Source of the DNA: Cenococcum geophilum
Taxonomy: Eukaryota
Direction: 5' to 3'
NCBI GenBank assembly: GCA_050273025.1
Contig: CP158635.1
Span: 4,588,001 to 4,652,000 of the forward strand
Length of the DNA stretch: 64,000 nucleotides
Part shown: positions 14,939 through 64,000 of the stretch, piece after piece
Layout: the number at the start of each line of letters is the position of its first letter
Position numbering within the stretch: position 1 is the stretch's first letter
Program-made: the position numbers and the translations under genes
Notes under the pieces: model-generated
What the model was told of the DNA's origin: nothing
Database searches by the model: none
Seen by the model: only the letters and a program-made list of their open reading frames with translations

Positions 14939-15147
14939 GCGTAGGTTCCGCCCTTCCGCCGCTAGCAACCTTACGAGCAGTCAGCCCCGCCCCTCAGGAG
15001 ACCTGCGGATGTTTATCTCACCATCCCGTCCCTATTGGCCTTCTTATCATATAAAACGCCGTTGTCGTGTTCCCACAATACGCCTTAGCTCTTAGGAGAT
15101 CTGATAATTCGCCTAAGAAATCCTCCGGTTTTGGATTCAAGACCATT

Positions 15148-16262
15148 ATGCCTGCCGCAACTCTACCCCTAGACTTCCAATCAATAGTAATTGTCAAGTT
15201 ATCTAATGATGAAAGAATATCCGAACAACTCACACTAGAAAATATGGGCATTGCCATCTCTGCATTTCACCGGGACGGCGTTGTCGTTCTGGAAAATGCT
15301 GTGGATCTTGAACATGTCGATAAGCTAAACGCGATACTTTCTGTGGATGCACTAGAAATGGCTAAACTTCCTACAACACATTTCAACGATGTAAGTGCAG
15401 TATTCCACTTTATATCTACATAGGCTCTCGGTATGCAGGACAAAGTAATTGCCTCTACTTACCCTGCTCCAAGTTTGGACCTGGCCCACCAACTGGAAAT
15501 ATGTCACAAGGTCCACCGCTCGAGCCTTCTCTCATGTACTCCGACATCTGGGCAAACGGCCCTGCAGTCTCCGTAATGTCCGCTATAATCGGCCCGAAAC
15601 CACGCGTTAACTACGTCAACGGCAACACGGCCCTAGGTGGCTTCATAGGGGCGCGCCAACCCGTGCATGCTGACATCACCTGGAACCACGCCAAGTCCCC
15701 ATTTGGCATTGTCACAAATTACTACCTGGTAGACGTCTCAGCTGCAAACGGCAGCACGGAGCTATGGCTTGGTAGCCACCGCGACACATCGTTTGCCGAT
15801 CACTGGAACTACAAGCCGGACGACCCCGACTTCAAAGTAAAAAAAGGCTTCATGTTTGGCATTCGGGACGAGAAGTTCGAACCCCGCCGCGAACAGGCAC
15901 CGCCAATCCAGCCAACTGTAAAGCGCGGGTCCGTAGTCATCCGCGACTTGCGCCTCTGGCATGCAGGCATCTCGAATCCCTCGCCGGATCCGCGGATCAT
16001 GCTTGCGTTCGTGCATACGCCGTGGTACTATGAGTGTCCCGGGAAGGTGGCGCTTCCAGAGGGAGCGAGAGGCCTGGTTGAGGAATGGGCATCCCGAGAG
16101 AACAATCCCGTGGTATATAACGCTCACTTCGTCCCTACGCAGTTGGATCACAAGGTTGTTCCGTTTACTCCGAACTTCAGCAGTCGGAATAAGGGGTTCC
16201 AGGCCATGCTACCAGACCTACCAAGAGGGTTTGTGTATGGAGAAGATGAGATGGCAGATTAA
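15148..16262 (+). CDS. Fe(II)/2-oxoglutarate dioxygenase, phytanoyl-CoA dioxygenase (PhyH) family, KanJ-like; 343 aa, 2 exons
   Basis: Exon 1 15148-15390 (FHRDGVVVLENAV), intron GTAAGT...AAG 15391-15473, exon 2 15474-16262. Motifs: HxD (RQPVHAD), NGSTELWLGSH, distal His (RDLRLWHAG) and the 2OG-binding Arg (PRIML). No RIP damage visible. Confidence 0.92.
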
Positions 16263-25566: not shown

Positions 25567-27855
25567 TATTAGAGGTCTAGGTTAGGCTTAGTATAACCTT
25601 AGGTTACGTATAACCCCCTAAGGTCCGCGATATATTATCTAAATAGTACTAGGTTAGTATAGAGGTTCTTATTATATGCCTTTAACCTTATTATTGCCTT
25701 AATAATCTATTTTTTAACCCTCTTTTTATTCTTTTACCCGCGCTAGTTTCTAGCTTATATAGGGCTTTTAATTTTATATAAAACGGCCTACTATAATTAT
25801 AATTATATAATATAGAGCTTTCTTCTTTTCCTTCTCTATTAATATTTACGCGTTTAGTAGCTTTATTTACCTATACCCGCGCCACACTTATATATCTTCC
25901 CCCTAACCTCTTACAGAGATAAAGTCTTTTAAAAATCTTCTTACCCTACGGTCTACTTTATAGTTAAAGAAAGCCCCTTTTACCTCCTTGTTTCCCTCCT
26001 CCTATAGCCTTTAAAATAAATTTAAGGCCTAAATAACACGGCTATATAATATTTATAAGGCCTAGCGCTTAAAAAAAATACTATAAGGGCGTATAAGCTA
26101 AAGTAAAAAGAGTAGAAAGACTAGTATATAAAACTAAAAGGTAATATAGACGGCGCCTAGGTAATAAAAGATAAGCTTTACCTATTTTTAGAGTAGTGTT
26201 ACGGCACTAACCTAACGCATACTGTTTTATACTATCTCGTACTATTTCCTACTATTAGCTGGCCCACTACTAGTGACTTAGCGGCTAGCCCTACTATTTA
26301 TATATAATACCCCCTTTCCAACTTCTTCCCCTCTTTATACTATAACGTAGTTATTTAGTCTACTTTATTGCAGCACTGTAACAGTTTATAGTATCTTTAA
26401 TTTGCGCCCTATCGTAATCACTAATTCCTTATACCCTAGCTAATTAACCTCTACCCTAGAGTAATCGCGACCTATATACGCCTCTACTAAACCTAATACA
26501 TCCCTAGTACAGTCCTAGAATAATCTTTAGTTTTTACCTAACGCCTAAATAGGCGACACTATTAACGCCAAAATAGCCGAAACCTAAAACCCTTATAACA
26601 TTTTTATAGACCTCTTTATAGAGACACACCCTAATATTATATAGATAATCCGCCGCTCCCTACTATACCCTAAGACCTTTAAGCCTAGTAAAGCTTACCT
26701 TACCCTTATTAACTATACTAATAAGTTCCTTAATAATATTAAAGTAGGACTATAGTGTATATATAATATAAACACCGCTAATAAAAAAGCTAATAAAAAC
26801 CTTAGTGCCCTTATTACTTCTTAGATAGGAACTATTAACTCCTAGGTAAAGACTATCGCCGTTTTAAAATAATTAACCCCTATAATAATAGTAGTAACCT
26901 AGTAAAAAAAACAAAGATCTAAAGACCTGCTAATATTTAGCGGAAAAGGTACCCTATTAGAATAATAAGCTAATTTTAAGACCTAGTATATTAAGATTAA
27001 GGGAGTCTTTAACCGGGACTAGGACTACTTTAATACAGTTTAATCCTAAATCCTTTATATCTTGTATATACTAAAGGATAAGGCCTATAAGTTTATTAAG
27101 TAGGGCTTAAAGCTTATATACGAGAACCTAAACAATATATCTGCGTAGAAATGGCCTACTAAGGAAGATATACTTAAAGACCTTACTGCCTATTATAAGG
27201 TCCTTAATATAACCTAGGTTATAAAGAATAAGCTTAACTATTTCCCCTAGGGCAAGCGTAATTACTAGTCCTAGAAGGGAGAGCTTAATAAGCTAATAAT
27301 CCGCGCTAAAAAAATAGATAAATAGAAGGTGAACCTACTCTAAAAGTTTATTTCTCTAAAGATAGAAGAGCTAGTACTTAGACTTGCCTATAAAATTAAC
27401 GATAGTAACTATATAGGTTAGAGTAAGTAGATAGATATATTTGCTAAAAACCTTACAAACTATACACACTAAGCTAACCTTAAGAAGAACGCTAACTACT
27501 ACCTACTTACCTAAGCCTCTGCCCCTATATTAACTTTAACCCTAGTAATAACTAAAGAACCTATAGACCTTAATAGAATCTTAAATACGGAGCGTAAGCG
27601 CCGCGTTAATAATAGACTATACCTTACTTATAGCCTGCCCGGATACTAAAAGGACGCCTATAACCCTATTAAATAGTAAACCTAGTCCTAATGCCACCCT
27701 ATTAAATGACGTAAACTAATAACCGTAGACGCGGTGACTATAGAGTCTATTATAGACACGGCGACTACGGAGCCTATTATAGCCGCAGCGGATAATCCTT
27801 TCCCCCCTTTAACCCTATAGCTTAGTTACTCTAAACTATACCCTATATAGAAGCC
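25567..27855 (+). mobile_element. Gypsy-like LTR element A, 5' part (probable LTR 25567-25704, gag), truncated by element B
   Basis: De-RIP gag KDPPMFSGKG...FETWxIKI (~26920-27000) and EPMDLDRISDTERKRRVDNGLCLACGLPGH (~27557-27646). LTR bounds are tentative (TATTAG...TTAATA, read as RIP-modified TG...CA). Confidence 0.65.
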
Positions 27856-30800
27856 TGTAACAGGACTAGCCTAGTTATAATAGAAATATCTTAATAAAAC
27901 ACTCAATAGATAAATTCCGACGCTTTAACCGAATTCTGCTAGATTAATTAAATTTTACTAAAGTCTATTAAGGACCGCGTGCGTATATACGTACGCATTA
28001 ACCACTAAGCCCCTAACTATTTAATTATATAATTCCCTTATTATTCCCTTCCCTTCTTTACGCAATGTCTTGTTCTTAGCGAGAGCTATATACCTTTAGA
28101 TTTAGATAGAATTTATATTATTCCTTTAAATCTTCCCTAGAGTCTCTCCGCGCCCTTATACTACGTTATGTTAATACTAATACCCTTAAAATAGTAAACA
28201 AACTTAAATCCGCCACGTCAACTATTATAGCCCTAGTTAGGGAATAAATAACTATAATGCAATAGTCCTTTATAGATGTCTTGGCCTAGTAACAAACTAT
28301 ACTAAAAGCTTAGTATTAGTAATTAATTAAAGCAATACGCAAAGAACTCTATAACGCCAAAGTACTTACATTAAAGACCCTAATAGCAATACCTATAAAT
28401 AAAATCGAAATAACTATATGTAAACCCGACCCATTAAATATAAACCCTAAACTAGTAATAGCAGCTTAACCCGTACCTATAACGAACCTAGTACCTACTA
28501 CAAAATTAGAAAAGCTCCCTAACCCTCTAATATTTAATAGAAATTAAAATAACCTATATCCCTTTATAACTAAGCTCTATTTTAAACTTTTAATAAACTA
28601 TAACTAATATCCTACTAAAGCTAGTAAGATTAGCTATGGAATGTCTCGTTTAAGTAAAGACGCTATACAAACTATAGACCCATTCTTCCGTAATAGCACC
28701 TTTATTAATTTTAAAATCTTTATCTTTTTACTAAAACGAATATGTAATAATACCAGCCGCAAATACACAGCTGTTACTAAACTTAAAAACCTATAATAAC
28801 GGAACTAAGACTTTACTAGCTTCTTTTTGGAATTTTTAGGCCTTATTAGTAAACTAGATTAGAATAAAGCCGCTAAAGTTACTACTCTCCGCCAAGCTAT
28901 TTTAGATAAAATTAGAGTATAGTTAGTAGGCAAAGAACTGCTAAAGGACTTATCCAAATTTACTATAATATATTAACAAATTAATAAGGACCTTTAATAT
29001 AATAAATAGACTTATTCCCTAAAGCCAACTACACCTTATATTTAAAACTCTACGAAACTGGTATATACCCTAAAGCGCGATCCGTCTCTAAGACCTAAAA
29101 GTCCTATATATAACCCTATAAACCTTAACGCTACTTAATCTTATATACCCCTAGAAGCTAATAAATAAAGAATATAGGCTGTAAATGGAGAATATTTTAG
29201 ATATAGAAAAAAGGGATACATTTAAAGGGATTGCTAAACTTACCCTTTTAAAAAGGTCCGCCGTAGCTCCTTTTAATCCTTAAGTTATACTTATTCTATA
29301 AATTATACTTAGTCGCTATAAAGCATCTCGCCTTTAATTAACTTAGAAAACAAATTATCCTAGGGCTAAGTTGCGCTTTAAGATAAGAAGTGGAAGAGTA
29401 TAAGTATTTAGGCTCTTTTAGCGCTAATATATTACACGACTCCCTTAATATACTTAGCAAAATTTAAATACTTAAAAAATAGAAGAAAGTACAAATCCTT
29501 ATAGATAGCGGAGCTACTAATATAGGCTTTATTAATACGAACTATGTAAAAACTTAACGCTTAAATTTAAAGAAACTTAATAAGCCCTAAGGCCTATAAG
29601 GCTTTAATAGTAAGCCTTTAATATACGGCGAACTAACGCACTATACTTTTATAAAGATATAAATAGGCAAACACCTTAAATACATTTCCCTATTTATAAT
29701 ACCCTTAAAGCATTATAAGGTAATACTTAGATATAGATAGCTAAAACAATACAACCCTTTAATTAGCTAGGTTAAAATAATACTAAAATTCCGTACAACT
29801 TATTGCTAAAGTTATTACTTAAAATACCACTTACCCTATAAATATATACACGACTATTTAAATTTAATATAATATAAATTGCCCTTACTATAAACCTTAA
29901 ACCAATATAATAAAGTTATAACTGCTAACCGCGGTAAAGAATGCGAAGATAATATATTAAAACTTCTTAAAATTTATATAGTATAAGCCGCACCCTTTTA
30001 TTTATTAGTAAGAAAATAAGACTATAAGATCTTTATTATAACACTAAAAGATATTAAAAAGGCGTTAGAACTAAAATAATATATTAACCCCTAACCTTTT
30101 ATACCTAAAGAATATTATAATCTAATTAATACGTTTAAGAAATAATTTATAAACTAACTACCCCCGTATTAAGATAAGTATAATTTTAAGATAGAACTTA
30201 AACCTAGTATAACGCTAAAGTTTGGCCCGTTATATAGTATATTATAAGAAGAGCTGCTTATAATATAATAATACCTTAAAGAGCACCTAGAGAAAGGATT
30301 TATTCGCCCTAGTTAATTACTATTTGCCTTATTTATACTATTCATTAAGAAACCTAGAGGAGGCTTAAGGTTCTATATTAATTATTAAGCCCTAAATACG
30401 ATTATAATTTAAAACCGATATCTAATTCCTCTGCTTTAAGAAACGCTTAACTACTTAGTAAAAGCACGATACTTTATAAAGCTTAATATAGTTACTACCT
30501 TTAATCGAATCCGTATTTGCGAAGGAGATAAAAAGTATACGGCTTTCTGTATACAATAGGGACTTTTTAAATACCTAGTAATGCCGTTTAGTGTAAAAAA
30601 CAGTCTTAGTACGTTTTAGTAATACGTTAATAATACGCTTCGCGAATCCCTTAATATATTTATTACCGCGTATATTAATAATATCTTAATCTATTTATCT
30701 TTGCTTTCTAAGTATTAGAAACACGTCTAAATAGTCCTTAAACGCCTATAAGACGCGGGCTTATAATATAATATTAAGAAATGCAAGTTCTATACGTCTA

Positions 30801-32571
30801 AAGTTATATACTTAGGCCTAATTATATCCCGTAACGGAATTAAAATAAACCCTAAAAAAATCGCTGCGATTATAAACTAGAAAAGTCCTAGTAGTATATA
30901 AGATATCTAAGGATTTCTAGAATTCGCAAATTTCTACTATTAATTTATTAATTACTTCTTAAAAATTATTTAGCTATTAGTAAACTTAATAAGGAAGAAT
31001 ATAAAATTTAAATAGACTACTAAATATAAATAAGCTTTTAACAACCTAAAATATCGTTTTATAACTACTTTAATTTTTACTTACTTTAATCTGGACCTTA
31101 AATACATCGTTAAAATAAACTCGTCTAATTATGTACTAGAAGGAGTATTATCGCAATATAATAAGAACGGTGAGCTATACCTAGTAGCTTTTCTTTTCTA
31201 AAAACTTACCCCTACTAAATTAAACTATAAGATATATAATAAGGAACTGCTTACAATTATTAGATACTTTAAATAATGGCGTTTAGAACTTAAAGGATTA
31301 TTATTCTTAATACACGTATTAACAGACTATAAAAACCTATAGTACTTTATAACTATAAAGCAATTATTATAACGCTAAATTTGTTAGGCCGAATACCTTT
31401 TATAATTTAACTTTAAGATTACGTATTAACCTAGTAAACTTAATTAAAAGCCTAACTTATTAATATAATAATTATAGAACTTACCTATAAACGCCTCTAA
31501 TAAACGGATTATAAATTAATTATAAATTCTACTGCCCCCTAAACGCTTTAAGAAACTATACCCTATATTTTTAAACGCGAAGCTTAACAGAAATGGTTTA
31601 GAAATTAATAAGTAGGATATAAAAATTGATAAATTAATAGAGCATAAATATAAGAACGACCCCTAAATAGTAGATATAATAAAAGCGATTTAAGCAGGGA
31701 AACGGCAATATAAGAATATTACACTCGCTAAATGCGAAATCTGTAATAATTAATTATACTATTAACAGAAGATAGTAATCCTAAATTCCGAACCTTTATA
31801 ATTTAAGATACTTAAATTTATACACAATTCCCTTATAGTAGGGCATCTTAGCCATATAAAGACCTATAAGATTATCTAACGAGTATATTACTAGCCTATA
31901 ATGCACAACTATATATAAAAATACGTTTAAGTATATAGAACATATATGCGTGGGAAAACCTCTTATATAAAGAAGTAAGGAGTACTTTAACTATTGCCAA
32001 TTCTAATATAAAAATGGCGAAATATCTTAATTAACTTTATAGTTAACCTGCCTAACAGTAATAGGTTTACAAATATTATAGTAGTTATTAACCATTTTAT
32101 AAAAATACAACATATAATTCCTATGGACTTAATTAATGCAATATTAGTAGCTGATTATTTTATTAAGTACGTCTTTAAGCTATATAGACTTCCTAATTTA
32201 ATAATATCTAATTACGGAAGCTAGTTTGTTTTAGACTTCTAGTAAGCCCTATATAAATAATTAAGTATATAAATACAACTCTTAACTATATTTTATCTAG
32301 AGATAGATAGTTAAACTAAAATTGCAAACGCGATTATAGAATAATACTTATAAATATACTACTCCTACCTATAAGACGATTAGGAAAAGTAGCTACCTTT
32401 AGCTAAGTTTACTGTAAATAATATAAGAAATAAATTAATAGGCGTAACGCCGTTCTACGCAACCTACGGATAAGACCCTTAACTTAGATTTAAACTATAA
32501 CCCGAAATTAATATAATAGGACCTGCGATTAAGAGGATTTAACTAATTAACGCGTATAACTTCGCTAATTA
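27856..32571 (+). mobile_element. Gypsy LTR retrotransposon B: 5' LTR (27856-28160), gag, protease, RT, RNase H, integrase; 3' end missing
   Basis: LTR TGTAAC...CTTATA matches 45542-45885. Motifs ILIDSGAT (~29496-29519), KKPGGGLRFCIDY (~30347-30385), YIDDILIY (~30671-30694), NYEIYDKELL (~31223-31252) and FHPETDGQTE (~32291-32320). Confidence 0.9.
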
Positions 32572-35500
32572 TGTTACGGACGCTTTAAGTATAATATTAC
32601 GACTACTTGGGGAAGAGTTGGACGAAGCTAGTTAGTTAATTAAAGTACGGTCTAGGATGGAGCCGATAGAGCTATATAACGAGGAATGGTAACCAAGGTC
32701 ACGTAAGGTGATTTATATAATCTATAGGATCTGCGTAATCCGCGACAGAATAAATAGAGTATATATACATCACGTATAAGAAGGATTTCATAGGAGTACG
32801 GTTGTGTATTTAAGGACCTTTAGTCCCTACCTAGATAGTTCCTTCCTTATAGTGATTCTTAGAATATAATTAGAGTTAATCTATTAGGCAACTACTCCAC
32901 CAGTTATTATTACGTTGTTGACTTTAATTTACATTACCTATACACCTAGCCTAATAACGAGCCTACCGTAGTACCTACTACAAGGTTTTATTATATAATC
33001 ACTACCTAGTTATAGTATTAAATATAAAAAGTCGAACAACATACTACTAAAAGCAGCCACTATAACGCCATTGACGGCAGCAACTACTTTAAGGTTAGGT
33101 GATACTAGTATAGCAGATACTGACTTATAGTAACCTGTGACGGTCGGATAGTTATAAGAGATAGTTAACTAGTTAATAGCTAATAATGCAGTAATAGAAG
33201 AAAGGGTTAATGGGATAGGAGCGGCGAGGATTAAGCTACTATTAATTAAAAGGTATTTAGGTAAGAGGTTAAAGCTTAAAGGATTCCTTACGCAAATGCA
33301 CTTTAAGGTTATATAAGAAGGGGCAAAGTTGCCAACACCTATAGATTGAATAGCCTATACAGGACTATTCCTATTAGGAAGAGCACTTAAGTAATTTAAG
33401 CCTTACCTTATAGAAATATAGGTAAATAGAATAAAAACTACTAATTAAGAGGTGCGATTTATATTCTTAAGCTAGGAAGGGTTTATAAAGCGACTTACGC
33501 AAATATTTAGAGACCTAGAGGTAGTAACTACGGCAGAAAGAAAACTCTAAGATATTACGCAATGAATATTAGCAATTAAGTATATAATATAGTTCCAGAC
33601 GTTAGTAATATAAGTTAAGTAGAATAATAAGGCGCTTATAGCACAGTATAAATAAAGGCTTAAGGCTAAAGTCTAGAATATAATTATCCTAATAGAAGAT
33701 ATGGATACCCTATAGGATTTAATAGATTAAGCGATTAAGATTAACAATTAGATCTACTAGAGGGAATAGGCTAAGAGAGGTTAAGATAGAGTTCTATAGT
33801 TATATAAGGCGTAGAGTACGCATTAACTAAAGCTAAGTTAGAAACTATAGTATGGCGCAGAGCTAATAGACCTAAGTGGTACTAAAGAAGCCTATAAGAG
33901 ATAGAGTAAGAAACTATAGAAACCTAAAGGTTAAGGATTTAGTAATTATAGGATTAAGGAGTAGAGGCTAAACTAGGGATCTTAGTAGTAGAAGGCGTTT
34001 AGGCGGACTCTATAATAAAGTTAATAGTTTAAAGATAGAGCTTATATAAATTGCGGAAAACAAGGTTATTTCGTAAGGGATTATAAAAATAGTTAGAGTT
34101 ACTATATAATAAAGGGAACCCGGCTAGTAAAAGACATATATATATAGAGGGACAATAGTATACTGCAAGAAACAAAAGAATATTTAATTAGAAGTTTTGC
34201 GTTCTGTTATAATAACGCATACTAAATTTATAAAGACGCTAAGTACGGCGTAAGCTATTAGCTATAGGAGCTAAAATCCTTAAAATATAGAGGGACTAAT
34301 AAACTAGTTCGTAGATCGGATATTAAAGATAATAAATTTAATAAAGGCGAAACATTTTATAACGATAAAATAATAAAGGCAGCTTACTAGAAGTATGTAA
34401 ACCTTAAAGATATTATAATAGAGGTAGAGGATAATTCCACTATAGAATAGGGAATATTAGTAGGGATTAAGACCCCACTAAACACGATATCTATCGCTTT
34501 ATAAGACGTAAGAGAAGTAGGGCAGTAAACCACTTTGGCACTTAATAAAGGTAAGAAGCTAAAGGCTTAAGAATTTTAAGACGAGATAAGAGATGACTAA
34601 GATTATTAAGATAAGATGAGGTAAACCTAAGGACCTATAATGGATAGAAACTAATAGAGTAGGGTAGTAGCTTAGTTTAAGGATATACGAATAAGCTTAG
34701 GATAGAGTTTCCCATAGGTATAAGATTCTTAAAATAAGATAAGTAAGATTTAAGACTCTTAAGATAAGATAAGAATACTAAATAAGCCTAGTTAAACTAA
34801 GGTAGAAGTAAAGCTTAAGTTAGAAGCAAGCTTAGGATTAAGAATCCTATAAAACTAAGACTTTAAGATATAAATAAGGACCATCGATAAGATTAGAGAA
34901 TCTATAGTATAAACAGCAACTAGACTAAGAGACAGATATATAGACCTAAAGGACTTACTAGGGGAATATAGTATTTAGCCTAAAAATCAAAAAGCTGATA
35001 CCAAGATTAAGAAGTAAGAAGACTTTAAGGATCTACTTATAAGACGCAAAAAGAAAGAAACTATAAAGGAATTTAGAGTAAGAATTACCTCATAGCAAGA
35101 ACAGAAACTAGATAAGAGATCTAGTACGTTAGGACGTATAAGGGACAGAGCACCTATATAAAGAATTACTAATAGGCCTAGAATAGGCACACTAAGAGCT
35201 AAGTGGCTTACTAAACTGGAATAAGAAGAGGATCTAGGGATTTTAACTAAATTCGAAGAACGACATATAAAAGGCTGTCACAACGCAGTAATAAGAAGAT
35301 ACTTCCTTACGAATAAACTATATATACTTTAGTAGCTGTACTAAAAGTGGTATAGGTAACGATATAATAATAAATAAGAAGATTTCTATATATGGTTAGA
35401 TAAAAAGGTTATTTAAGACCACCCGATTACAGAAAAGGCGATAAGTCATATTAAAGGAGCCTTAATTATAACATTAAAAGATCTAGAGGAACGTTTAGAG

Positions 35501-38500
35501 GATTAAAGAAGTAAAAGATATATCTTAATACCTGCGAATAAAGTTATAACGTTTAGATTAATATAATAGAGGTTTAAACTTAAGGATAAAGACGAACTAA
35601 GAGTTAACCCAAAACACTAAGTATATTATACGCTATTATAGATCGTATACATGGATGATATGTATAATATATACAGAGCACTAAAGGATAAGTATTGGAA
35701 ATACCCTATAAGAATATATTAGCTAATAGAAGAGTAAAAGTATTAAAACGCTAAGTACATACATGGCTGGTATCTAGTAAAAGTTTAGGAGTTAGAAGAC
35801 TTAATACTTTAACTAGGAAGATTCCTTATAGAAGAATGCCTAGATGGATAATAGTGGTGGGAATGCCTAGAAAACACGTATCTATAGTATATTAAAGATA
35901 AAAAGCGAATAAAGTATTGGCTAAAGATAGACCAAGTACAGACAGGATTAAATAGTTAATAGTTGGGAAACGTAGAGGCCTATAGGACTAAAGGGAGCTA
36001 GTAGTAGAGCCTTAGACCTTTAAAGGAATTTAAGAATAATACCTAAATTTATAAGTTAAATAGCAAAATTAATAGTTTAAAGCATTAATAGATAGTAGAG
36101 TAATAAGAAATTATATCTCACTAACAGTAGTTAAAAGAAGAGGATTACTATATAGGAAAAAGAAATGTGCTTATTTATTAGTAACGATTTTAGGAGATCC
36201 GATAACCTATAAAGGAGGGATTATTAATCTAGAAATAGGACCTATTTAATTAACTATTAAAGGGAGATAAATTGAGATATTTTTTAATGTATTACTATTG
36301 GGGAATAATAAGGCAGTACTAGGAATGCCTTAGTTATAGGAATATAATTTAAAAATTGATTGGGTTATAAGTTAGGTCAATATTAGGGATACTTAATGAC
36401 GTAAAATATAATAACAAGCTAAGTTAGTATAGTACTAAGTTGGAGCGATATATAAGGAGACTAAGTAAGGCTTAAGTTATATACTAAAGAGATACTATAA
36501 GTATGGTAAGAAACTATAGTTACTAGAGAGTAAGAAGCTGTTAGAATATATAGCATAGGACTATAAGATAGAATTAGAACTAAAAATAAGTTTAAGGTTC
36601 TTTCCAATCTATAAACTTACTAAAGAAGAAGGTAGAGCACTAAAAGAGTTTATCTAAGAAAACTTATAAAAGGGATATATTAGACCATCGCAGTTATTAG
36701 CGGGTTATCCAGTACTATTTATACTAAAGAAGAATAGTAAACTAAGGCTGTATATTAACTATAGACAGTTAAACAGCATTACTAGAAAGGATAGGTATCC
36801 TTTACCCTTAATTAGCGAAGTCTAAGATAGGATAGGTAATATACAAATCTTTATAAAGATAGATCTAAGATAGGCGTACTATTAGATTAGAATTAAGGAA
36901 GGCAATAAATAGAAGGCAGCCTTTAGGTTAAAGGAAGGACTATACGAACTATTAATTATATAATTTAGGCTTATAAACGCACCAGCAATGTTCTAGAAGC
37001 GTATTAACAATATATTAGGAGAACACTTAGATAAATTTATTATAGTATACCTTAATAATATTATTATCTACTTAATAATAGAGGAAGAATATAGAGAATA
37101 TATTAAATGGGTTTTAAAGAGACTATAAGAAGAACAGATGCTAGTAGCAATTAAGAAATGCAAGTTCTTCACTAGAAAGACCAATTTTGTTAAATTTATT
37201 ATTAAACTAGGCCAACTTAATATAGATCTAAAGAAGATTAAGGCTATAGTAAATTAGTAAGAACTAGAGAATGTTATAGAACTAAAATTGTTTTTAGGGT
37301 TTTATAATTACTATAGAAGGTTTATAGCGCAATAGTTAAAAGATATTAAACTATTTACGCGGTTAACAAAGAAAGAAGAACTATAGGTATAGGGAGAGAA
37401 ATAGCGAGAGTTATTTAAAAAAGTTAAAGAGTTGTTTACCTAGGAGCTAGTTCTTAAGATCTATTAACTAGGACTAAAAACGGTTATAGAAATAAATATA
37501 TTAGATTATATACTAGGGGTATGCTTTATATAGAAATATTAAGATAGATAGTATCTAGTGGTATACTATAATCGGAAGATAATACCACTAGAGTTAAACT
37601 ATAACATCTATAATAAGGAGTTATTAGGTATAGTTACAGTACTAAAGAAATAAAGAGTATTCTTATAAGGTATAGAGAAACTATTTATAGTTAAGACGGA
37701 TTATAAGAACCTAATAAGATTCCTAATAATAAAGGAACTTAACTAAAGATAAGTTAGATAGGCAGAGATGCTTGCAGAATATTACTTTAAGATTTAGTAT
37801 ACTAAGGGTATAGATAATACATAAGCAGACGCTTTAAGTTAGAAGGCTAAACTACAGAATAATAAAAAGCTATTAGGGGCTTTACTGTAAAAGGATATAG
37901 ACGGATTAATTAGGTATAATTATCTAAAGATTATAATAACCTAGGAAAACAAAAAACTAGAAAGAGTCTATAAGACACTAGAGAGCTTTTAGGTATAAAG
38001 AATTTTAAAAGCATAGCTAGAAGATTTATAGGCGGATATATACAAGAATTAAGAAACTAAGTATATCCTAAGAAGCATAACAGAAGATTTTATAGAAGAT
38101 TTCTATAAAGGAATAACTTAAGGACACAATGGAGCTATAGGCTTAGTGTTAAGACTCTAAGAGGAATATATTATTAATAGAATCTAAGGCTTAGTACGGA
38201 AAGTTATAAAGGAATATTTAGATTATTAGAGAAATAAACCAACGAGGCATAAGCCATATAGAGGGCTATAACCTATTAAAATACTAAAGAAACCATAGGA
38301 GGTTATATTATAGGACTTTATTATTAAGTTACTAAAATTAAGAAATCCTATTACCGGGCGAGATTATAACGCGATCTTAGTAATAGTAAATAAGCTTATA
38401 AAGTGGGGGTACTTTATAGTATATATAGAAGAAATATTAGTAGAAGATGTCGCTAGAATCTATATTAAAGAAGTATTTATAAGACATGGGGTACTAAGTA

Positions 38501-40500
38501 AGATTATATTAGACAGAGATTTAAGATTTATAACAGCATTTTAGGAGGTATTCTTAGCGGAATAAGGAGTTAGAGTAGTAACTTCTACTATATATTATTT
38601 ATAGACAGACGGTTAAACAGAAAGACTAAACTAGACACTAGAGTAGTATCTAAAGCACTATATTAATTATACACAAAATAATTGGGTATCGCTATTACTA
38701 GTTATATACTACAACACCATAAAAAGAAATAGGCATATTACTATTTAAGGCAAATTATGGGTATAAGCCAAAAATATTATTGTTACTACAGTAAGCGAAG
38801 AAAATAAGTAGTATAGCTAAAGAAAGAATAAAGACGTTAATAAATCTTTATATAGACCTTATAGAATTAGTAAAGAAAGTATAAGAGAGAATAAAAAAGT
38901 ACTATAATATTAAGAGATCTAAGGGACTAGATCTTAAGGAGGGAGATAAAGTGTAGCTACTATATAAAAATTTTAAAAGTTAATAACTAAGTAAGAAGTT
39001 AGACTATATTAGACTAGGACCTTTTAAAATTATATTTTACTGGTTATATTTAAGTTAAACCTACTAGCTAAGATAAAGATCTACCCTATATAGCATATTG
39101 CAATACTAGAGCCAGTATATAGGAATATTAAGCCACTAGTTTATAAAGTAGACACGTATAGAGGATAAGAGGAAGACAAATAATAAGTTTCGAAGATTGT
39201 TAGTTATAAGGACATCGATAATAAAATATAGTATAAGGTTAAGTGGATAGGCTATACTAAGACTACCTAGGAACTACTAAAAAATTTAAAAAACGCTATA
39301 GGAAAGGCATAGAAGTATCGGAAGAGATTAGGTTAGGTAGTATTAATAAAGAAGGATTACTAAAGAATAAGTTACCTAGGGGGGACCTAAGAGGAGTAGT
39401 TACTAAACTATTTAGATCTGTTTCCTTCTTAGCCGGAAAAAAGTCCGTTCTTTTATTACTAAGTTCCTATAAACCTTATTCTATAAGTTTCTACTTTTTA
39501 GAATAAACCTTCTTATAACCCTTTTTAAGACGGATTAACTAAGTAAATACCGCAAGACGAGACTTAAGGGCCCGTTGCTAAGCATCGGCAGCCTCCCGTT
39601 TAGCGTCTTAGGAACGGCGCAACTTTGCCAAAGTAATAGATAGTTTATTATCCAGCCGCGTAGCAGTAAATTAAATACGAGATCCTAAGATAAATTAATT
39701 AGGGAACTAGATGACTACTAAAAGTAATAAGTTATATATATTTAGCATTAGAGATAGAGCGAACGTTATAAGACAAACGAATATTTGCTTTAGTATACTC
39801 TAAATAAAAAAACAGTTATTGCAAAGATAGGTTCGCTAACGCAATATAGACTAACCCCTCTTTTACACAGCAAGAATATGGAGATAGTATAATCTTACTA
39901 AGAGATAGTATTATAGTAATAATACGAATACAACAAGCGGTTAAGGAAGAAGAAATTGCTTTAAGTATAATAAGCAATAATATTAACCAAATTAATTAGA
40001 TAGATATTATACCTCTAGTAAACGACTTAGAGATATTTAGAATCTTTAAGGACAAAGATAAAAAGGAGGGAGATGGTATTATGGACGCTTTAAGTATAAT
40101 ATTATAACTACTTAGGGAAAAGTTGGATAAAGCTAGTTAGTTAATTAAAGTACGGTTTAGGATAGAGCTAATAAAGCTATATAACGAGGAATGGTAACCA
40201 AGGTCACGTAAGGTAATCTATATAATCTATAGGATCTGCGTAATCCGCGATAGAGTAGATAGAGTATACGTATATTATATATAAGAAGGATTTTATAGGA
40301 GTACGGTTGTATATTTAAGGACCTTTAATCTCTACCTAGATAGTTCCTTCCTTATAGTGATTCTTAGAATATAATTAGAGTTAATCTATTAGGCAACCAC
40401 TCCACCAGTTATTATTGCGTTATTAACTTTAATTTATATCACCTATACACCTAGCCTAATAATAAGCCTACTATAGTACTTGCTATAAGGTTCCATTACA
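32572..40500 (+). mobile_element. Gypsy chromovirus C with two 424-bp LTRs (32572-32995, 40077-40500)
   Basis: Matching LTRs TGTTACGG...ATTACA. PPT AAAAAGGAGGGAGATGG precedes 40077. Gag knuckle ~34045-34085, ALIDSGA ~36082-36102, RT YLDDIIIY ~37048-37071, RNase H, integrase, and chromodomain (WYEVKWxGYxETTWEP) ~39180-39300. Flanks do not form a TSD. Confidence 0.92.
39400..39912 (-). pseudogene. Antisense accessory gene inside chromovirus C: six-Cys (Zn2Cys6-like) domain plus coiled coil
   Basis: Raw frame ILSLSKIILSPYSCCVKEGLVYIALANLSLQ*LFFYLEYTKANIRLSYNVRSISNAK de-RIPs to PCSRCVKEGLVCIALAxPSSRQPSSCSECTKANIRSSCDVRSVSDAE. Then an intron-like stretch (CTAAT..TTAG at ~39685-39700) and ARLDxxLSxTLAKLRRSQDAxREAADAQQRAL. 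Confidence 0.6.
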
Positions 40501-43500
40501 GGCTTGCTTTAAAGTAATTACTAGAAGAAGTGCTACGTTTGTAAAAAGCCAAATTACTAGTTAACTAGATACTCCCTTAATAAGCAAAAAAAGGCATATA
40601 ATAAGTTCCGTTAGAGTATAAGAAATGTTAGAAATTATAAAGTTATTATAGCCTACTTTTAAAGCTTTCTAGTTTAATATAAAGGCGTAGAAAATCTTAA
40701 GGGTAAGGTTAATAAGACTAAACAGCTCCTTATAGATATAGAAATTAAGGACTATTTACCTAACTAATACTTTACTAAGTATAGTAAGGTAAATGGTATA
40801 TAAACCGTTACTATTCTTAATAACTAATCTACGCTCCATTCTATTATAAAGTTAGATATCTTTAATAAGCCAAAGAAGAGCTTCGCGTTTTCCTTTAACG
40901 ACAAATACTTGGCAAATGTCTTCTATAGTATTATACCGGATACTAAAGCCGCAGGAGTATCTATAGTAGGAGAACCTTAAGTTTAAGCCCTTTAGTAGCT
41001 TAATAGCTCTATTTAAATTGACTATTTAACAGCAGGCCAACACACAATTTGTTTTAGTAAGGGTACTACTATCTCTCTTAGTATAATTAGGGTTTAAACC
41101 CCCTTAGGGTATATTACTTTTTATATTATTCCTATAAACACCCCATTTCTATTTTATATTAAAGATATAAATAAACTAGGCGTTAAGCTTAATAACCTTA
41201 AGAATATGCTCGTGTAAGGAGATAATTAGATGCCTATTATACGTAAGTAGGGTTACCCTTAGCTACTCCTTTAATAACTAGAAAAGAGTATTGCTTAAAG
41301 CTATTTAACTAAATTAAAGTTACGCCAACTATACCGTTATTTTAGTTACCTATTAGTTTACTAATTACTTAGGGTTCTTTAGTAAGTAGGCTATAAAGTT
41401 AAGGTTAAGGCAATTAAGTATCTTATAAAATACTACTACCACTGCTAAATAAACTAGAGGTCCCCTAGCCGATTTAAGTTCACCCTTAAAGATAACTATA
41501 ACTTTAACTTCTATATTATTATTAACGTTATATATCTTAGCAGCAAGCTAGTATTTTAAGTTATTAACTTCTTAACCTCCTTTTAAGCCGCATAATTCTT
41601 GAAGGATATATTAGCTAGAAACGTATAGGATACCCTTTAGTTATACTAGATTAATGTCTACCTAAGACCCCCTAATTAAATTGTCTATAATATAAAAAAG
41701 AACTTCTTATCTATAGAGTTCTGATAATAAATAAAGGCAATAGCAATTAAGGTTAAGGAAGTCCCTATTAAGGTATATAATAGTATTAAAAAAGTAGAGC
41801 GATATTACGCGCTATTACGCCGTATATATAAGATTATCTCTTTAAAACTAAAGGATGCTAGTAAAGAACTTACCTTATAAATGGCTATTAAAGCTATTAA
41901 TAATTCCGCTAGCCCGGATAGACTTATACCTATATTACTAGTCTTTAGCGCCTACCTATAAATAACTAATAATTCTCTACTATCTCCCTCTATTATATAA
42001 TAAGCTAAGGTAATTTATAAGGCAATAAAGGAGGTATAACGCCTCTATGCTATATGCTAGGTTAATAATATACTAGGAATAAGAAATGGCCTAAATACCT
42101 TAACTATAATTAATCTACTACTCTAGTCTAAGGTACGCGTATAGCGTAAAAAGGGAAAATAGTTAGGCCTATATTAACTTATTACAATTAATAGTTAAAC
42201 TTATACTATTTAGATGCCTTATAAACCCACTTAATTCCATTTAACTGTTATTAAGCCTTACTATAAAGATAACAATTCTAAGCCTTTATAGGATGCCCTA
42301 AAAGATGCTTTAGAAGAGAACTATAATTAATATACTCTAGAAGGCGACTACAATCCTAATATAATTATAGTAGATGCGCCATAACCACGATACGGTAGAG
42401 GTCGCCTAAAGGGATCATGAAATTACTAACATTTTATTAATTTTAAAGAATAATTTATTGCCGCTATTAAGAATAGAGTTAAGTTATTAATAGCCTTTAT
42501 AACAGCTAAAGAGAAGGCTGACTTTAAGCTCGTAAAATAGCTCTAAAAGGAAGGTTATATTATAACCCTAAAAGCTCCTTTCTAGGCATCTAATAAGCAG
42601 GAGATTAACGGTCTTATTATAAGAGGAGTCTTTAAATTTAAAAAGTATAACCCTACTAAGTTTAATAAAGTTCGTATATTTAAGTTAAGGATAGTTAATA
42701 AGATTAAGGGCAAAGCTACTAATACCCTATTTAAGAAATTAAGGCTTATTATCTAAGGTTATAATAATAATAGTAAAGAGATAATTCTTATATAATTTCC
42801 TATAATTTAACGAGCTAGTTAGTGAGTCATTATTATATTAGCTCCCTCCTTAATAAAGGATAGAATAGCGGTTTGTTTATAAGATATTACTTAAGCCTAC
42901 ACCTAATTAGAGACGTATCTTTAGCGCTTAATATTAGCATACCTTCTGGAGTAAATTCGCCACTAGTATCCTAAAGATATAATTATAGTTATGCTTAAGC
43001 CATTATATAAAATCGCAGAGGTAGGAACTTACTAGTAAGCTACCTATAGCAAGCACTATAAAGAGAAGCTTTTAATAACTACTTCTATATTTAATCCCTA
43101 CTTCCTTATTATAACTACAGGAACCCTATTTAGAATTATTGGTATATAAACTAATAATATAATTATCTTAGGAGACGACTAATTTTTAGCTTTTAAAGAG
43201 GATAAGCTAGTAAAGGCAAATCTTATAGTAAAGCTAAAGGAAAAGCTTAATTTAATAATACTATTACTTTTTAATGGATATATACTCTCCCTAAATAAGG
43301 ATTCTATTGCTTTGCGCTAGAAGGGTTAAGGTAAGAAGATTAACGTTATTAATATAAATTCCCTAAAGTAAGGATATGTGGAGCAACGCGCTCGCGGAGC
43401 TTATATTACTTCTATCTATTAACCTAAGGCTTTATTTAATCTCTTTATTACTACCTAATACTAGAAACTAACTAAGGATAACGTTCTTACCCTAAATAAA

Positions 43501-54484: not shown

Positions 54485-57400
54485 TGTCGGGAATGAGGCA
54501 ATTTGCCGTCACGTACGGCAAACTGCCGTCACATAATGGCAAGTTGCCATCACGTGTCGCCGCGGCACTAGCGTGGCGAGGAGCCTTAAGCTCCTCGCCC
54601 TTCCTCATTCCAATTAATAAGCTTTATTAACCAATATCACTGTAACCCTACTCGAGTAGTTGTTATTAGTGAGTCACCCTATATAACCAACACTAATTAG
54701 TAGTTAAATACACAGTTAACTACAGAGCAGCTAGGTTTTTAAACAGAAGAGACAGTCTTATATAGGGGTGCCATATGCGCTTATATAGAATGGATCCCGG
54801 CAATACTATACTACCTTAGACTTACGGAAAACTAGTAATAGAAGTGTTACTAAGTACTAGGAGATACCAAGTTGCGTCTATTATATAGAACAACTGCGTT
54901 TACGAAGATTTGGTTAAGTACTTTAGGTCAGAAGTATTACTAAACCTAAGGTCCTAAGTTAACGTCCAAAACGCGTTAAACAATATCTTAAATTACCTAC
55001 CTCTTAACAGTAAACCTACGAGATCCTATAAAACCGAAAATCCTACCTACCTTTAATATACGACACCCTATTAATTCTATACCTACTATGGCGTTAACCT
55101 ACCCAAAGAAGTATAAGAAAGATATTAACCCAAAGATATAAAATAAAGCTATAATTAACCTTACAAACGCTAATAAACAAGACTTAAATGGATTTTTATT
55201 ATACCATATAGCACATTACAAGGACAGTAAATACAACGATACCGCGCTATAGAAATATATAAAGGAGGACTTTATTAAATGGATAAAGAAAACATAGGCC
55301 CCTATAAATAAGGATATCGTATAGAACTTCCGTAACTTCCTTTAAGAAAATAGAGTATTTATCCCTAAGGACGGGGGTACTATTAGAGATAATATTTAGG
55401 AGCAGGTTCTTAACGTAAAAGAAAAGCACAAATAGACTGTATAAGAGATTAAGCACTAACTACGCACTATAAGGAAGCTTAACTTATAATAGAATCCAAG
55501 TAATATACTATAAGAGACACGTTCTAATTCTATTACTCTAGGCATAAGTTCTTCCGTTTTATATCTATCACCTCTACCTCTATCTTTAGTTCCCTATAAT
55601 CTACTAATTTAACCTATAACTTTAACCACTGCCTCTTAATATAAGTAAGTATAAGATCCCCTTGCTTTACAATTTACTAACCTTTAAACTCTACTAACTA
55701 GACCTATATCCCTACTATAGCCTATAATATAACTCCTACCTCCTCTATCTTAATCTTAAATTAAAGGTAGTTTAAAATTGCTTACAAAGCTTGCGAAGCT
55801 CTATTCGGATTAAGAGAAGAAGTTTAGCGGGGAATTATATAATATTCTTAATTTGAAACTACGTATCTTCTATAACTATTACTAGAAGGTAGGAATAGAG
55901 TCTAATTAATACTATAACGCCTATTCCGTTATACTTAAGGGCCGAGCTAGTACCTTTTATTATAATCGTTTAATAGGAAAAGGATATAATTTTAACCGCA
56001 TAATATATAAGTTAAGATGCTACTTTAAAACAGAAGAGAATAAATAGTAGTATATATTAGAATAGAGAGAGACTACCTTTCTAAAAATTATTGCTATAAA
56101 CCCAGGTATCCCTCAGCTTAATTATCTTCAAAAGCTCTTTAATTAACTTTAGATAATTTAGCGTGGTTTATCCAAATTATATTAAAAGGACTTCAGCCTA
56201 CGTAATTAAGTTATTAGCGTATGTTAAGGTGTTAAAGAATATAACCTTACTCTCTTTAATCCTATAAATACTTATAAAGGAGTATATACTTAATTAAGAT
56301 CTTCTATTAGCACTACTCTACGCTCTTAAAAAGTATAGCAATTTAACGCCTAACTCTAACCTACTTTAATTGACCCGCCTAACTAATACGATTATAACTG
56401 GACTAATCGAACATATGGTAGCCAGGGTAGGCAATATAGTAGAGGGTACAATTAACAACTATAAGGTAAAGGTGGAGGTCCTTATAAAGGTTTATTTTAA
56501 AGTAATTACTAGAAGAAGTGCTACGTTTATAAGAAACCGAATTACTAGTTAACTAGGCATTCTTTTAATAAATAAAAGGAGGTATATAACAAGTTCCGCT
56601 AGAGTATAAGAAATGTTAAAAATTATAAGGTTACTACAGCCTACTTCTAAAGCTTCCTAGTTTAATATAAAGGCGTAGAAGATCTTAAGGGTGAGGTTAA
56701 TAAGGCTAAATAGCTCCTTATAGATATAGAAATTAAGGAGTACTTACCCGACTAATACTTTACTAAGTATAGTAAGGTAGATAGTATATAAACCGTTACT
56801 ATTCTTAATGACCAATCTACGCTCTATTTTACTATAAAGTTAAATATCTTTAACGAGCTAAGGGAGAGTTCCGCGTTCTCCTTTAATAACAAATACTCGG
56901 CGAACGTCTTCTATAGTATTATACCAGATACTAAAGCCATAGGAGTATCTATAGTAGAAGAACCTTAAGTTCGAGCCCTTTAGTAGCTTAATAGCTCTAT
57001 TTAGATTAACTATTTAACGGCAGGCCAATATACGATTCGTTTTGGTAAGGGTACTATAATCTCTATTAGCACAATTAGGGTCCAAACCCCCTTAGGGTAC
57101 ATTACCTTTTACGTCGTTCCTATAAATACCCTATTTCTATTTTATATTAGAGATATAGACAAATTAGGCGTTAAGCTTAATAACCTTAAGAATGTACTTA
57201 TTTAGGGAGATAATTAGGTGCCCGTCGTACGCAAGTAGGGTTACCCCTAGTTACTCCTTTATTAACTAGAAAAGAGTATTACTTAGAGCTATTTAACTAA
57301 GTTAGAGTTACGTCAACTACACCGTCGTTTTAGCCACCTATCTGTTTACTAATTACTTAGGGTTCTTCAGCGGGCAGGCCATAAAGTTAAGGTTAAGGCA

Positions 57401-60400
57401 ATTAAGCATCTTATAAAGTACTACTATTAATACCAAATGAACCAGAAGTCCCCTAGCCAATTTAAGTTTACCCTTAAAGATAACTATAACTTTAACTTCT
57501 ATATCATTATTAACGTTATATATCTTAGCGGTAAGCTAGTACTCTAAATTATTGACTTCTTAACCTCCTTCTAAGCCGCACGATTCTTAAAGGATATATT
57601 AGCTAGGAACGTATAGGATACCCTTTAATTATACTAGATTAATATCTACCTAGGACCCCCTAATTAAATCGTCCATAATATAGGAAAGAACTTCTTATCT
57701 ATAGAGTTTTAATAATAGATAAAGGCAATAGCAATTAAGGTTAAGGAAGTCCCTATTAAGGCATATAATAGTATCGGAAAAGTAAAACAATATCACGCGC
57801 TATTACGCCGCGCATATAAGATTATCTCTTTAGAACTAGAGGACGCTAGTAAAGAACTTACCTTATAAATAGCTATTAAAGCTATTAACAATTCCGCTAG
57901 CCTAGATGGACTCATACCTATATTGCTAGTCTTTAGCGCCTACCCTTAAATAACTAATGATTCTCTACCATCTCCCTCCATCGTATAATAAGCTAAGGCT
58001 ATTTATAAGGCAATAAAGAAGGTATAATGTTTCTACGCTATACGCTAGGTTAATAACTGACAATCGGAAGTCCGTGCACTGATTGTAAGAAAAGAATGAT
58101 AACTCTGTCTATTGAATGGTGGCTCTAGAGCCTCTATATATACATAGGAAAGGTGTAGGAAATGAGAACGAGAAGGGGGTAGGGGGGTGGCAATGGAAAC
58201 AAGGGGTAGGTGACTGAGTCAATGATCGAGTCAATGATTGAGTCAATGACTGAGTTAATGGGAGGCAGCTGAGTCGGTGATAAGATAACCTGATTTAGGT
58301 CGACACACCCCCCCAGCTGATTAACTGGTAGGTGATTAGCTGGATATACCTAAATAGGAAATATCCATGGTGTTGAACTAAATAGAAACCATCTAAAAGC
58401 AAGAATTTGATAAGGAAATCGTGTAAATAGGTTAAATAGTACAGTCAAATCTGACTATAATAGAGTCTTGATATTAATTAGATTTAGTTGTTGAATGAAG
58501 CTTTCGTGCTTCTGCCTTGGTAGGGCCTTCGTGAGACCGTTAGCTGTTATGTCAGTAGTAGGGACCCACTTGATTACAATTGAGCCCTTTTGAACTTCTT
58601 AGCGAAGCCAATGCTGGTGGATATCTATGTGACGAAGCTTTGTGCTTAATTGGGGTCCGTTCTTGGTGAGTAGTTGAATCGTCTATAGGTTGTCGCAGCC
58701 AATTATATGTTCCTTATTCGTGTGGAGTCGTATAGCTTGAAAGAAGCGCTGCCACTAAATTAATTTGGTAGCTGCATTTGATAGAGCCTTAAGCTTAGCT
58801 TTAGTGCTTAATGTTGTGACTGTCTTCTGCTTGGTGGAGCGCTAGTTAATTGCTCCCCTAAATAGTGAAAATATGAAGCCTTTAGTGCTCTTCTGACTGA
58901 TAGGATTATTGCTAAATGCAGCGTCGCTCACACAGACGATGATCTGACTTCCAATATTCCTGTTTGAGTATTCGATTGCTAGGGTTCTTGTTTGATAGAG
59001 GTATGCAATCGCTTGATTGACTGCGGCTTTGTGTAGGGGCGACGGATTGCGAAGGAATTCTGTGAGCTTGCTCGAGGCTCGAGCGACGTTAGGTCGTGTA
59101 ATGTAGGTGGCGTATAGTAGTGAGCCGACCTTCCGTTGATATATATAGACCTGCTGCTCAGAGGCCTGTTCTGGATTAGGTAAGAGATCGTCCGTACTTA
59201 TTGGCGTATGTATTGGACGATAATCTTTTAGATGGAAGGTGCTGGCGATCTTATTAATGTAGGAATCTTAATAGAGCTAAAGCTTCCGTTAAGGTTGATT
59301 GCGGAGGATTCTGATTCCTAAGAACCAGGTTAGTTCACCTAGGTTCTTTATCTCGTACTTCTTTATCAGCTCTTCCTTAAAGAGTTAAAGCTTTGGTAAG
59401 TCTTCTGTGCGGCAGGCTGCTATAATATTGTCGACGTAGAAAAACATAATTAGCCAGTCGTTGTGAAATAGGCATGATTCTCTATTGACTGCCGTCAGAC
59501 CTAGGGTCATTAGGGTAGTTGAGAACTTATTAAGTTAAAGCAATGGTGATTGTCTGAGGCCGTATAAGGCTCTTCGAAGGAGTAGACACCTGCCCTTCTG
59601 TTGAAAGCCATCTGGAAACTCGATATAGACTGTCTCATTAATAAGGCTATTAGTGAAGGCGTTGACTGCGTTGCACTGCCAAGTCTCTAGATTGCATGCA
59701 GCGATAATCGCCATCATAGCCCTGAATATTTTTGCTGCAAGGGTTGCTGTATACGTGTCCTTTTCGCTGGGTCGTTATAAGTCACCTTGTATATAAAGAC
59801 GGGCTTTAAATTTAACTAGATATCTATTAGTGTTAAACTTATAAGTAAATACCTAGGTGACGGGTAAGACGTTAAGCGACACTGTCCGTATGACGGTCTC
59901 GAATGTCCCTCGCTGCTTGAGATTACTGAATTCCTTATTGGCGGCTTCCGTAAAGCCATCTTTGTACGGGTGAGCTTGAAGCTCCTTCCAGCTGCGAGGT
60001 AGTAATAGAAGCTCGTCGCGGTATAATCGCTTCTGGTGATATTTAATTCCGGTAGCAAAAGCTCCGTAGAAGGCAGGAAGGGTATTTGATTGCTTAATAT
60101 CTATAAGATAAGCTTCTCGACGCGTTGAGGGCTTCTTAGTTCTTCTGCTTGTTACAATATTAACATCGCCCACATCGCCGTGGATCTCCTGTCTTGGATG
60201 GGCTTGTTCTCTAGGAACGAGTTTAAATCGGGGTTTTTGCTTAATTGAGGCACTTGACGGCTCTACATTGGTAGTATCTAATTGAGGTTCTGGCGTCTTA
60301 GCTGGGGTAGGGAGGCCTGGTGTAGAGTCGTCCTCAGAGGCTTGTGGGCTGATTACGTCATCGTCCTGATCTGTCGCTTGATCTTGATTTTCATCAGCAT

Positions 60401-63400: not shown

Positions 63401-64000
63401 CTGATTCAGGTCGACAATAACGTATTAGGAATAAGAAATAGCCCAAATACCTTAACTACGCTTAATCTACCACTTTAGTCTAAGGTACGCGTATAGCGTA
63501 AAAAGGGAGAATAGTTAGGCCTATATTAACTTATTACAATTAATAGTTAAACTTGCACTATTTAGATGCCTTATAGACCCACTTAATTCCATTTAACTAT
63601 TATTAAGCCTTACTATAAAGATAATAGTTCCGAGCCTTTATAGGATACCATAGAAGATGCCCTAGAGAAGAGCTATAATTAATATGCTCTAGAAGGCGAC
63701 CATAATCCTAATATAATTGTAGTAGATATACCGCAACTATAACGCGGTAGAGGTCGCCCAAAGGGATTATAAAATCGCTAATATCTTATTAATTTTAAAG
63801 AGTAATTTGTTGCCACCATTAAGAATAGAGTTAAGCTATTAATAGCCTTTATAACAGCTAAGAAAAAGGCTAACTTTAAACTCGCAAAACAGCTCTAAAA
63901 GGAAGGTCGTATTATAACTTCAGGAGCTCCTTTCTAAGCATCTAATAAGCAGGAAATCAATAGTCTCATTACAAGAGGGGTCTTTAAATTTAAGAAGTAT
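54485..64000 (+). mobile_element. Copia element D second copy (5' LTR 54485-54692, gag-pol), interrupted by element E and running off the window end
   Basis: LTR TGTCGGGAAT...ACCAACA is similar to 44501-44676. Palindrome ACTAATTAGT at the LTR/internal junction. Integrase ELRQLHRRFGHP (~57304-57340). Resumes at 63417 collinear with ~42066 onward. Confidence 0.9.
58058..63416 (-). mobile_element. Copia element E, complete, lightly RIP-mutated; 248-bp LTRs (58058-58305, 63169-63416), TSD ATAAC
   Basis: LTRs differ at 7 positions. ATAAC on both flanks. PBS-like GTTATAAGCCC and PPT GGGGGGGTG on the minus strand. Gag-pol ~63032-58455 includes LWHKRLGH, LINRTPS, LRIYGCRAY, LRRALYGLRQSP, FYVDDI and ADGLTKAL. 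Confidence 0.96.

Follow-up and report, generated by a model that had tools for sequence, protein, structure and literature searches.

The window, as we call the whole 64-kb stretch of DNA that was analysed, is ascomycete DNA heavily damaged by RIP, with a GC content of about 0.3 and a TpA/ApT ratio of 1.5–2 nearly throughout. Positions 32572–40500 of its + strand are occupied by a RIP-wrecked Ty3/gypsy chromovirus, bounded by a 5′ LTR (32572–32995, beginning with TG) and a 3′ LTR (40077–40500), which form a direct repeat with 90% identity over 420 nt; 47 of the 49 differences registered between them over 431 nt are transitions. A polypurine tract of the + strand is found at about 40060–40076. 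When pol was translated with stops read as X, Pfam recognized reverse transcriptase (RVT_1, E 2.6e-16) and RNase H (RT_RNaseH, E 6.5e-16) at 36601–38199 of the + strand. The RIP-damaged integrase region (38200–39000, +) gave no Pfam match and was identified by eye in the translation; the same region lies antisense in related loci. The chromodomain with the C-terminal end of pol (39040–39336, +) obtained a sub-threshold E-value of 0.073 (13.4 bits versus the cut-off of 25.1) in this RIP-damaged copy, and stands at the position expected for the end of pol. The two LTRs and the order reverse transcriptase, RNase H, integrase identify the element as Ty3/gypsy. The family is large: two first looks at genome G000 gave 3055 and 2710 candidates, 40 and 150 of which, respectively, were scored.

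The left flank of this host element is the integrase of another gypsy element and the right flank is another repeat (40497–42068, repeated at 56485–58056), while the flanking positions 32567–32571 and 40501–40505 form no clear target-site duplication, so that the locus is nested or rearranged. A second gypsy element lies on the minus strand at 26000–32500, its reverse transcriptase (30227–31426) being 38% identical to the first one, and a gag-like frame is read on the + strand at about 26400–27300. No relative of the antisense gene described below was detected in this second gypsy element, and there is no second copy of its family within the 64-kb window. At 18–5137 an inverted pair of 2.2-kb segments, 89% identical, surrounds a stretch (2237–2918) with 66% likeness to the LTR and the beginning of gag in the host element. 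A RIP-free island at 15055–16262 (+) contains an intron-bearing gene of the phytanoyl-CoA dioxygenase (PhyH) family (Pfam E 1.9e-10), and at 58053–63416 (−) an element that RIP has damaged far less is inserted in the LTR of another one; the terminal repeats of the inserted element are 97% identical, and its pol pieces are copia-like (GAG-pre-integrase, SH3).

The antisense gene occupies the minus strand between the chromodomain and the 3′ LTR, which is the location given in a preliminary description of this DNA. The limits proposed there, 39400–39912, are inside the gene and too narrow at both ends, as it runs from about 39968 to 39296. The first coding exon (39968–39740) begins with a basic/hydrophobic N-terminal helix followed by a six-cysteine cluster (39878–39768); the last exon (39684–39296) specifies a long helix (about 39684–39470) and then a tail of acidic, Ser and Pro residues up to the stop codon at 39298–39296, giving about 205 codons in total. 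The exons are separated by a 55-nt phase 1 intron (39739–39685) with a GT donor, changed by RIP in the window copy, a CTAAY-type branch site and a YAG acceptor, so the intron-like segment and the helix continuing from 39684 in another frame, both noticed earlier, are indeed present. At least 39 nt of the last exon coincide with the end of pol. Since 25 of the 140 copies considered below have CAG/CAA in place of the apparent pol stop at 39334, the true end of pol is uncertain and lies probably further right than 39336, which would make the overlap probably larger. The start codon site at 39968 is ATG in 33/140 copies and a second Met site at 39890 in 72/140. Upstream, a 5′ leader (39969–40076, −) with few transversions carries a possible splice donor at 40012: GT is present at 40012–40011 in at least 132/140 copies as part of a conserved AG/GT. 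The window copy of the gene is dead, having lost five of the six cysteines and accumulated eight in-frame stops, one in the first exon and seven in the last.

The six cysteine sites are the minus-strand codons at 39878, 39869, 39848, 39806, 39797 and 39770, spaced exactly Cx2Cx6Cx13Cx2Cx8C, as had been read from the single copy; five of them are TAT (Tyr) in the window and one (39869) is TGT (Cys). The TGC at 39872 was rejected as a cluster cysteine, its column being neither Cys nor Tyr in 74/140 copies. Over the six frames of the window, the exact C/Y spacing is seen a single time and looser Zn2Cys6-type spacings ten times, so that in DNA as AT-rich as this the pattern of a single copy proves little. 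We therefore considered 140 natural copies; G000 supplied 60 of them and three metagenome assemblies the other 80. The G000 set comprises 30 copies chosen by likeness to the window copy, which is included, one found by a Cys-rich pattern and 29 like that Cys-rich copy (L032 was left out as a duplicate of L031); the 80 metagenome copies were picked by patterns of the protein P0007. All 140 are RIP-damaged. The six sites are TGY or TAY in 839 of 840 codons, a count in which the copy choice biases the ratio of Cys to Tyr and leaves the absence of other residues unaffected, whereas in six further columns of this frame that are rich in C/Y, 74–107 of 140 copies have neither. Among the 30 copies most like the window copy, TGY was found in 6, 18, 1, 2, 21 and 4 at the successive sites, and all remaining codons were TAY except one CGT; in this unbiased set, window copy included, each site is thus Cys in at least one copy. 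The claim that the tyrosine codons are the RIP product of cysteine codons is borne out by these numbers, and neither of the two outcomes named in advance as speaking against the preliminary reading as a whole, namely retention of Tyr rather than Cys or a frame unconserved among copies, was observed in the 140 copies. All six cysteines are kept in none of the 140 copies and five in 17, while nine fetched proteins carry all six. The commonest hexamers between Cys2 and Cys3 contain one to four Lys and end with Leu-Val, and most of 81 proteins have a Pro at the third residue ahead of Cys4.

Undamaged relatives made it possible to examine the intron. P0270 (152 aa) and P0267 (239 aa), found on JGI contigs among 45 longer relatives, have all six cysteines and join the cluster to the helix via Trp exactly at the predicted intron. 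This Trp had been deduced from the intron model before the two proteins were found. At the joint, 227 of 248 matched proteins have Cys/Tyr, the reading of an unspliced donor; another 12 stop short of this position and 7 carry different residues, and Trp occurs only in P0267 and P0270. In blastp, P0267 aligned with the last exon up to the last residues (33% over 143 columns, E 4e-13), its end coinciding with the window stop at 39298–39296, and P0270 aligned with the first exon (38% over 73 columns, E 2e-10). Most probably the two proteins derive from spliced RNA, i.e. were deduced from cDNAs. P0007 was rejected as splice evidence: it is read as a deletion variant that keeps the first codons of the intron and carries one surplus residue. 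Four RNA runs mapped on copy L048 showed no joint at the intron, coverage being thin (53 reads in run X1, none 95% alike); the X1 reads over the gene all have one orientation, as antisense RNA would give if the library were stranded, and these runs were not used as evidence. The donor G is retained in 31/140 copies. Intron length differs between subfamilies (55, 61, 127 and 130 nt) with both ends kept, and all four well-supported lengths equal 3n+1, single copies having 54 and 131 nt; this is an oddity, as a free intron need not show it. Residues 3–22 of P0267 match 40101–40042, beginning within the 3′ LTR, after which the match continues in the first exon, the break lying at the AG/GT. From this one protein there are hints that the transcript starts in the LTR and that the P0267 relative has one more intron upstream. 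Such leader splicing would remove the first Met in the P0267 subfamily, suggesting that long and short protein forms may exist. That the locus carries a real spliced antisense protein gene, as the preliminary description had supposed, can hardly be doubted.

Selection was assessed from transversions, since RIP makes none. In the first exon they fall on codon positions 1, 2 and 3 in the ratio 20/6/41 and in the coil 29/19/50 when those shared by 6 or more copies are counted (with a 3-copy threshold, 39/36/57, p 0.053), while in the intron and LTR they are even over the positions; the order 3>1>2 fits minus-strand coding. Transversion-only omega of exon 1 is 0.32, the lowest of the six frames and like the 0.30 of pol. 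For the whole coil, whose first half is near saturation, it is 0.84, and the plus-strand frame that shares third positions is lower (0.51); values of 0.41 and 0.56 were obtained for the conserved half of the coil and for the tail, respectively. Judged by these values, only the conserved half is clearly constrained within the coil. Read-through of + strand pol over the whole region was also considered and found unsupported, omega of that frame being 1.43 over the coil; the stop test for it is underpowered, because RIP has left columns made up of stops alone in the pol frame too. Within the element, variability is highest in the first half of the coil (39520–39660) and the LTR block 40210–40270, with transversions in 20–27 of 30 columns (25–27 in the coil part). 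Net indels keep the frame in 48/50 copies for exon 1 and 90/94 for exon 2 versus 31/122 for the LTR, all counted as copies with indels, not as events. Helix length is 46, 50, 57 or 61 codons in 126 of 128 measured copies (12 of the 140 were unmeasured); the intact proteins have 61 and 64. Such changes by 3, 4 and 7 codons imply that the helical phase is preserved. One of the G000 copies (L034) has the first exon intact in place and from mid-intron on is replaced by unrelated GC-rich DNA.

These data bear on the idea that the antisense RNA itself, as double-stranded RNA or a source of small RNAs, is the regulator and the protein matters little. The antisense transcript does overlap the end of pol, and this route is discussed in review PMC7264820, but the codon-position bias, the omega of exon 1, the invariant cysteines and the frame-keeping indels all testify to selection on the protein, so that RNA as the sole function is very unlikely and largely refuted. 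The same is true, to an even higher degree, for the assumption that we deal with a functionless fragment of a captured host transcription-factor gene or with a chance RIP pattern. The ten loose spacings in the window would suit chance, and an intron within a retroelement can mark the capture of a host gene. Against both stand the persistence of selection over diverged subfamilies and the constant position of the gene: antisense pol lies downstream in 70 of the 71 metagenome loci with at least 900 bp of downstream sequence, the chromodomain being 510–670 bp away, a count which is no survey of breadth as the three assemblies may hold related fungi. It was also registered in 4 of the 9 shorter loci among the 80. 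No long host transcription factor of such type occurs in 150 listed representatives or in the 45 longer proteins. Capture or chance is accordingly extremely improbable as an explanation of the present gene; capture is refuted except as an account of its distant origin. On the evidence of these layouts, the antisense gene is fixed between the chromodomain and the 3′ LTR in the chromovirus lineage of the host element, and the window contains a copy, killed by RIP, of an accessory gene that this lineage carries antisense to gag-pol.

What kind of protein it encodes was approached by comparison with the fungal Zn(II)2Cys6 family (Gal4 family, PF00172). Similar are the Cx2Cx6C of the first half, the Cx2Cx8C of the second and the long helix that follows, and there is a weak Pfam similarity with a best E of 0.0045; the Pro shortly before Cys4 may be another shared trait. 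Different are the scores below the cut-off, the carriage by a retroelement and the size of only about 205 aa. The 13-residue loop is long for the family norm, there is no middle-homology region, and the Cys2–Cys3 segment seems poorer in basic residues than the recognition helix of Gal4-type proteins. With the Pfam Zn_clus cut-off at 21 bits, the best score was 17.5 bits for a genome copy, a separate set of 7 copies reached E 0.011, and ten proteins gave 16.5 at best (P0259), 13.6 for P0270 and 8.1 for P0267, all below the cut-off; DUF3716 matched two proteins as weakly as Zn_clus. In the ESM Atlas P0267 reached 0.92 to an ascomycete cluster of 204 aa auto-named Zn(2)-C6 fungal-type domain protein, its neighbours being ascomycete clusters of 204, 192 and 214 aa, and P0007 scored 0.85. 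Pfam found no family in the three minus frames of the window, and a word-index protein search with one RIP-damaged copy gave no match. A PDB sequence search with a 7-copy profile matched only C2H2 fingers, in short alignments dismissed as chance, and with a wider profile it returned nothing under E 0.4; no relative was found in the viral contigs searched. AlphaFold2 on P0270 predicted an N-terminal helix (residues 13–30) and an unbroken helix (77–151) with pLDDT >90, amphipathic with 76% hydrophobic residues at a/d positions, while the cluster region stayed at pLDDT <50 both in this model and when modelled alone. Tested with the helix alone, Foldseek gave no match, and the VIA fold search returned uninformative generic long helices and coiled coils (Z up to 7.4). 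Of the suggestion of a Zn2Cys6-like domain with a coil, for which structure prediction had been proposed as a check, there stand the six conserved cysteines and the confidently modelled long helix; membership of the family by Zn_clus score and a confident fold of the cluster do not. As the Pfam cut-off was missed, the protein is not filed as a Zn(II)2Cys6 member, but its sequence fits a stripped-down Gal4-type factor and the term “Zn2Cys6-like” is apt.

Based on this architecture one can propose how the gene may operate. Transcription would proceed leftwards from a point in or near the 3′ LTR, the presumed source of the transcript. The 55-nt intron was spliced out, as the two intact relatives show; its survival in the DNA may be due to its antisense orientation relative to the genomic RNA. 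The product of about 205 residues consisted of the N-terminal helix, the six-cysteine cluster, the long amphipathic helix and the acidic tail. Its six cysteines would hold two zinc ions, the long helix would pair two copies, and the dimer would bind sites in the LTR of its own element and control gag-pol transcription in a minimal Gal4-type mode. We regard such a dimeric zinc-cluster regulator of the element's own LTR as having close to, but somewhat less than, an even chance of being right. A scan of the LTR for CGG-type sites showed five surviving triplets, no convincing pair and no identifiable binding site; a 9-nt CGG-containing word present twice (40149–40157 and 40301–40309, 152 nt apart) is a weak candidate. 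Co-variation of gene and LTR showed no clear excess, the distance correlation being 0.70 for exon 1 and LTR versus 0.61 for pol and LTR.

The confident part of the model being the long helix only, with its matches to generic coiled coils, and the Zn_clus score being below the cut-off, the protein could instead be a structural component or adaptor that binds Gag, integrase or a host protein, for instance to enter the nucleus or to choose a target, and does not control transcription; PMC7264820 suggests roles of this sort for antisense ORFs of plants. Targeting is, however, already covered by the chromodomain of the element, and the order cluster, helix, acidic tail is that of a transcription factor, so we consider this role unlikely. 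Some DNA transposons of plants encode anti-silencing proteins of their own, and a comparable activity is imaginable here: the protein would bind the DNA or chromatin of its own element and keep methylation, heterochromatin and RNAi off. The heavy RIP applied by the host is in line with this, as is the variability of the first half of the coil, expected for a surface engaged in a host conflict. But the variability would also fit relaxed constraint on an exposed helix, domain searches found no catalytic or chromatin-reader domain, and any protection cannot have lasted, since every one of the 140 copies is RIP-damaged; an anti-silencing factor is in our opinion improbable to about the same degree as an adaptor.

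Antisense genes at this position have precedents, to which the dimeric LTR regulator proposed above may be compared. According to PMC7264820, PMC8365987, PMC4227169 and PMC5987419, Boty-like chromodomain elements of Botrytis and Sclerotinia contain, antisense and between pol and the 3′ LTR, a gene called brtn, whose function is not known. Its carrier is likewise an ascomycete Ty3/gypsy element with a chromodomain and an extra antisense gene in this place, while these citing papers, in the parts available, mention no cysteine cluster, coiled coil or intron for brtn; the likeness drawn here is one of carrier, position and orientation. No BRTN sequence was present in the searched supplements (PMC8365987), and no match named BRTN was among the protein-search matches listed. 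The gene of the window is a variant of the antisense extra gene known from gypsy elements, and possibly brtn itself. In plants, PMC7264820 describes aORF-3R of gypsy elements (Grande gene23, RIRE2, Retand, PvRetro13), also antisense between pol and the 3′ LTR. Position, orientation, pol-like conservation and a suspected nuclear or regulatory role are shared, and so is presence in most copies, on which it bears that our copy set was retrieved via the antisense-gene region itself; lineages and domains (SMC-like, transposase 28) are different. The words “zinc” and “intron” are absent from the accessible text of this review, zinc, antisense and transcription factor do not occur in PMC3248453 on fungal LTR elements, and brtn is unmentioned in the accessible portion of preprint 10.1101/2022.03.07.483234. 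Among the papers listed by a full-text literature search none describes a zinc-cluster gene in a fungal LTR element; the original description of brtn may include cysteines or an intron. As far as searched, the likely nature of such an antisense gene as a zinc-cluster regulator is not in print.

The more general proposition, that a widespread ascomycete chromovirus clade has a minimal, spliced transcription factor of Zn2Cys6 type for its own use, which recognizes its LTR, is put forward tentatively, as somewhat less likely than not. If true, it would provide a fungal counterpart of retroviral trans-regulators, and retrotransposons would be the source of many proteins of 190–215 aa that fungal annotations call “hypothetical” or “Zn(2)-C6”; on account of such genes, transcription factors would be overcounted in fungal genomes rich in repeats. 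PMC7264820 treats the function of the extra antisense genes of LTR retrotransposons as an open question, and here it becomes testable because the product has a recognizable architecture, exact exon limits and intact natural relatives. If the protein does regulate the element, fungal retrotransposons would control their own expression more actively than the usual gag-pol picture implies.
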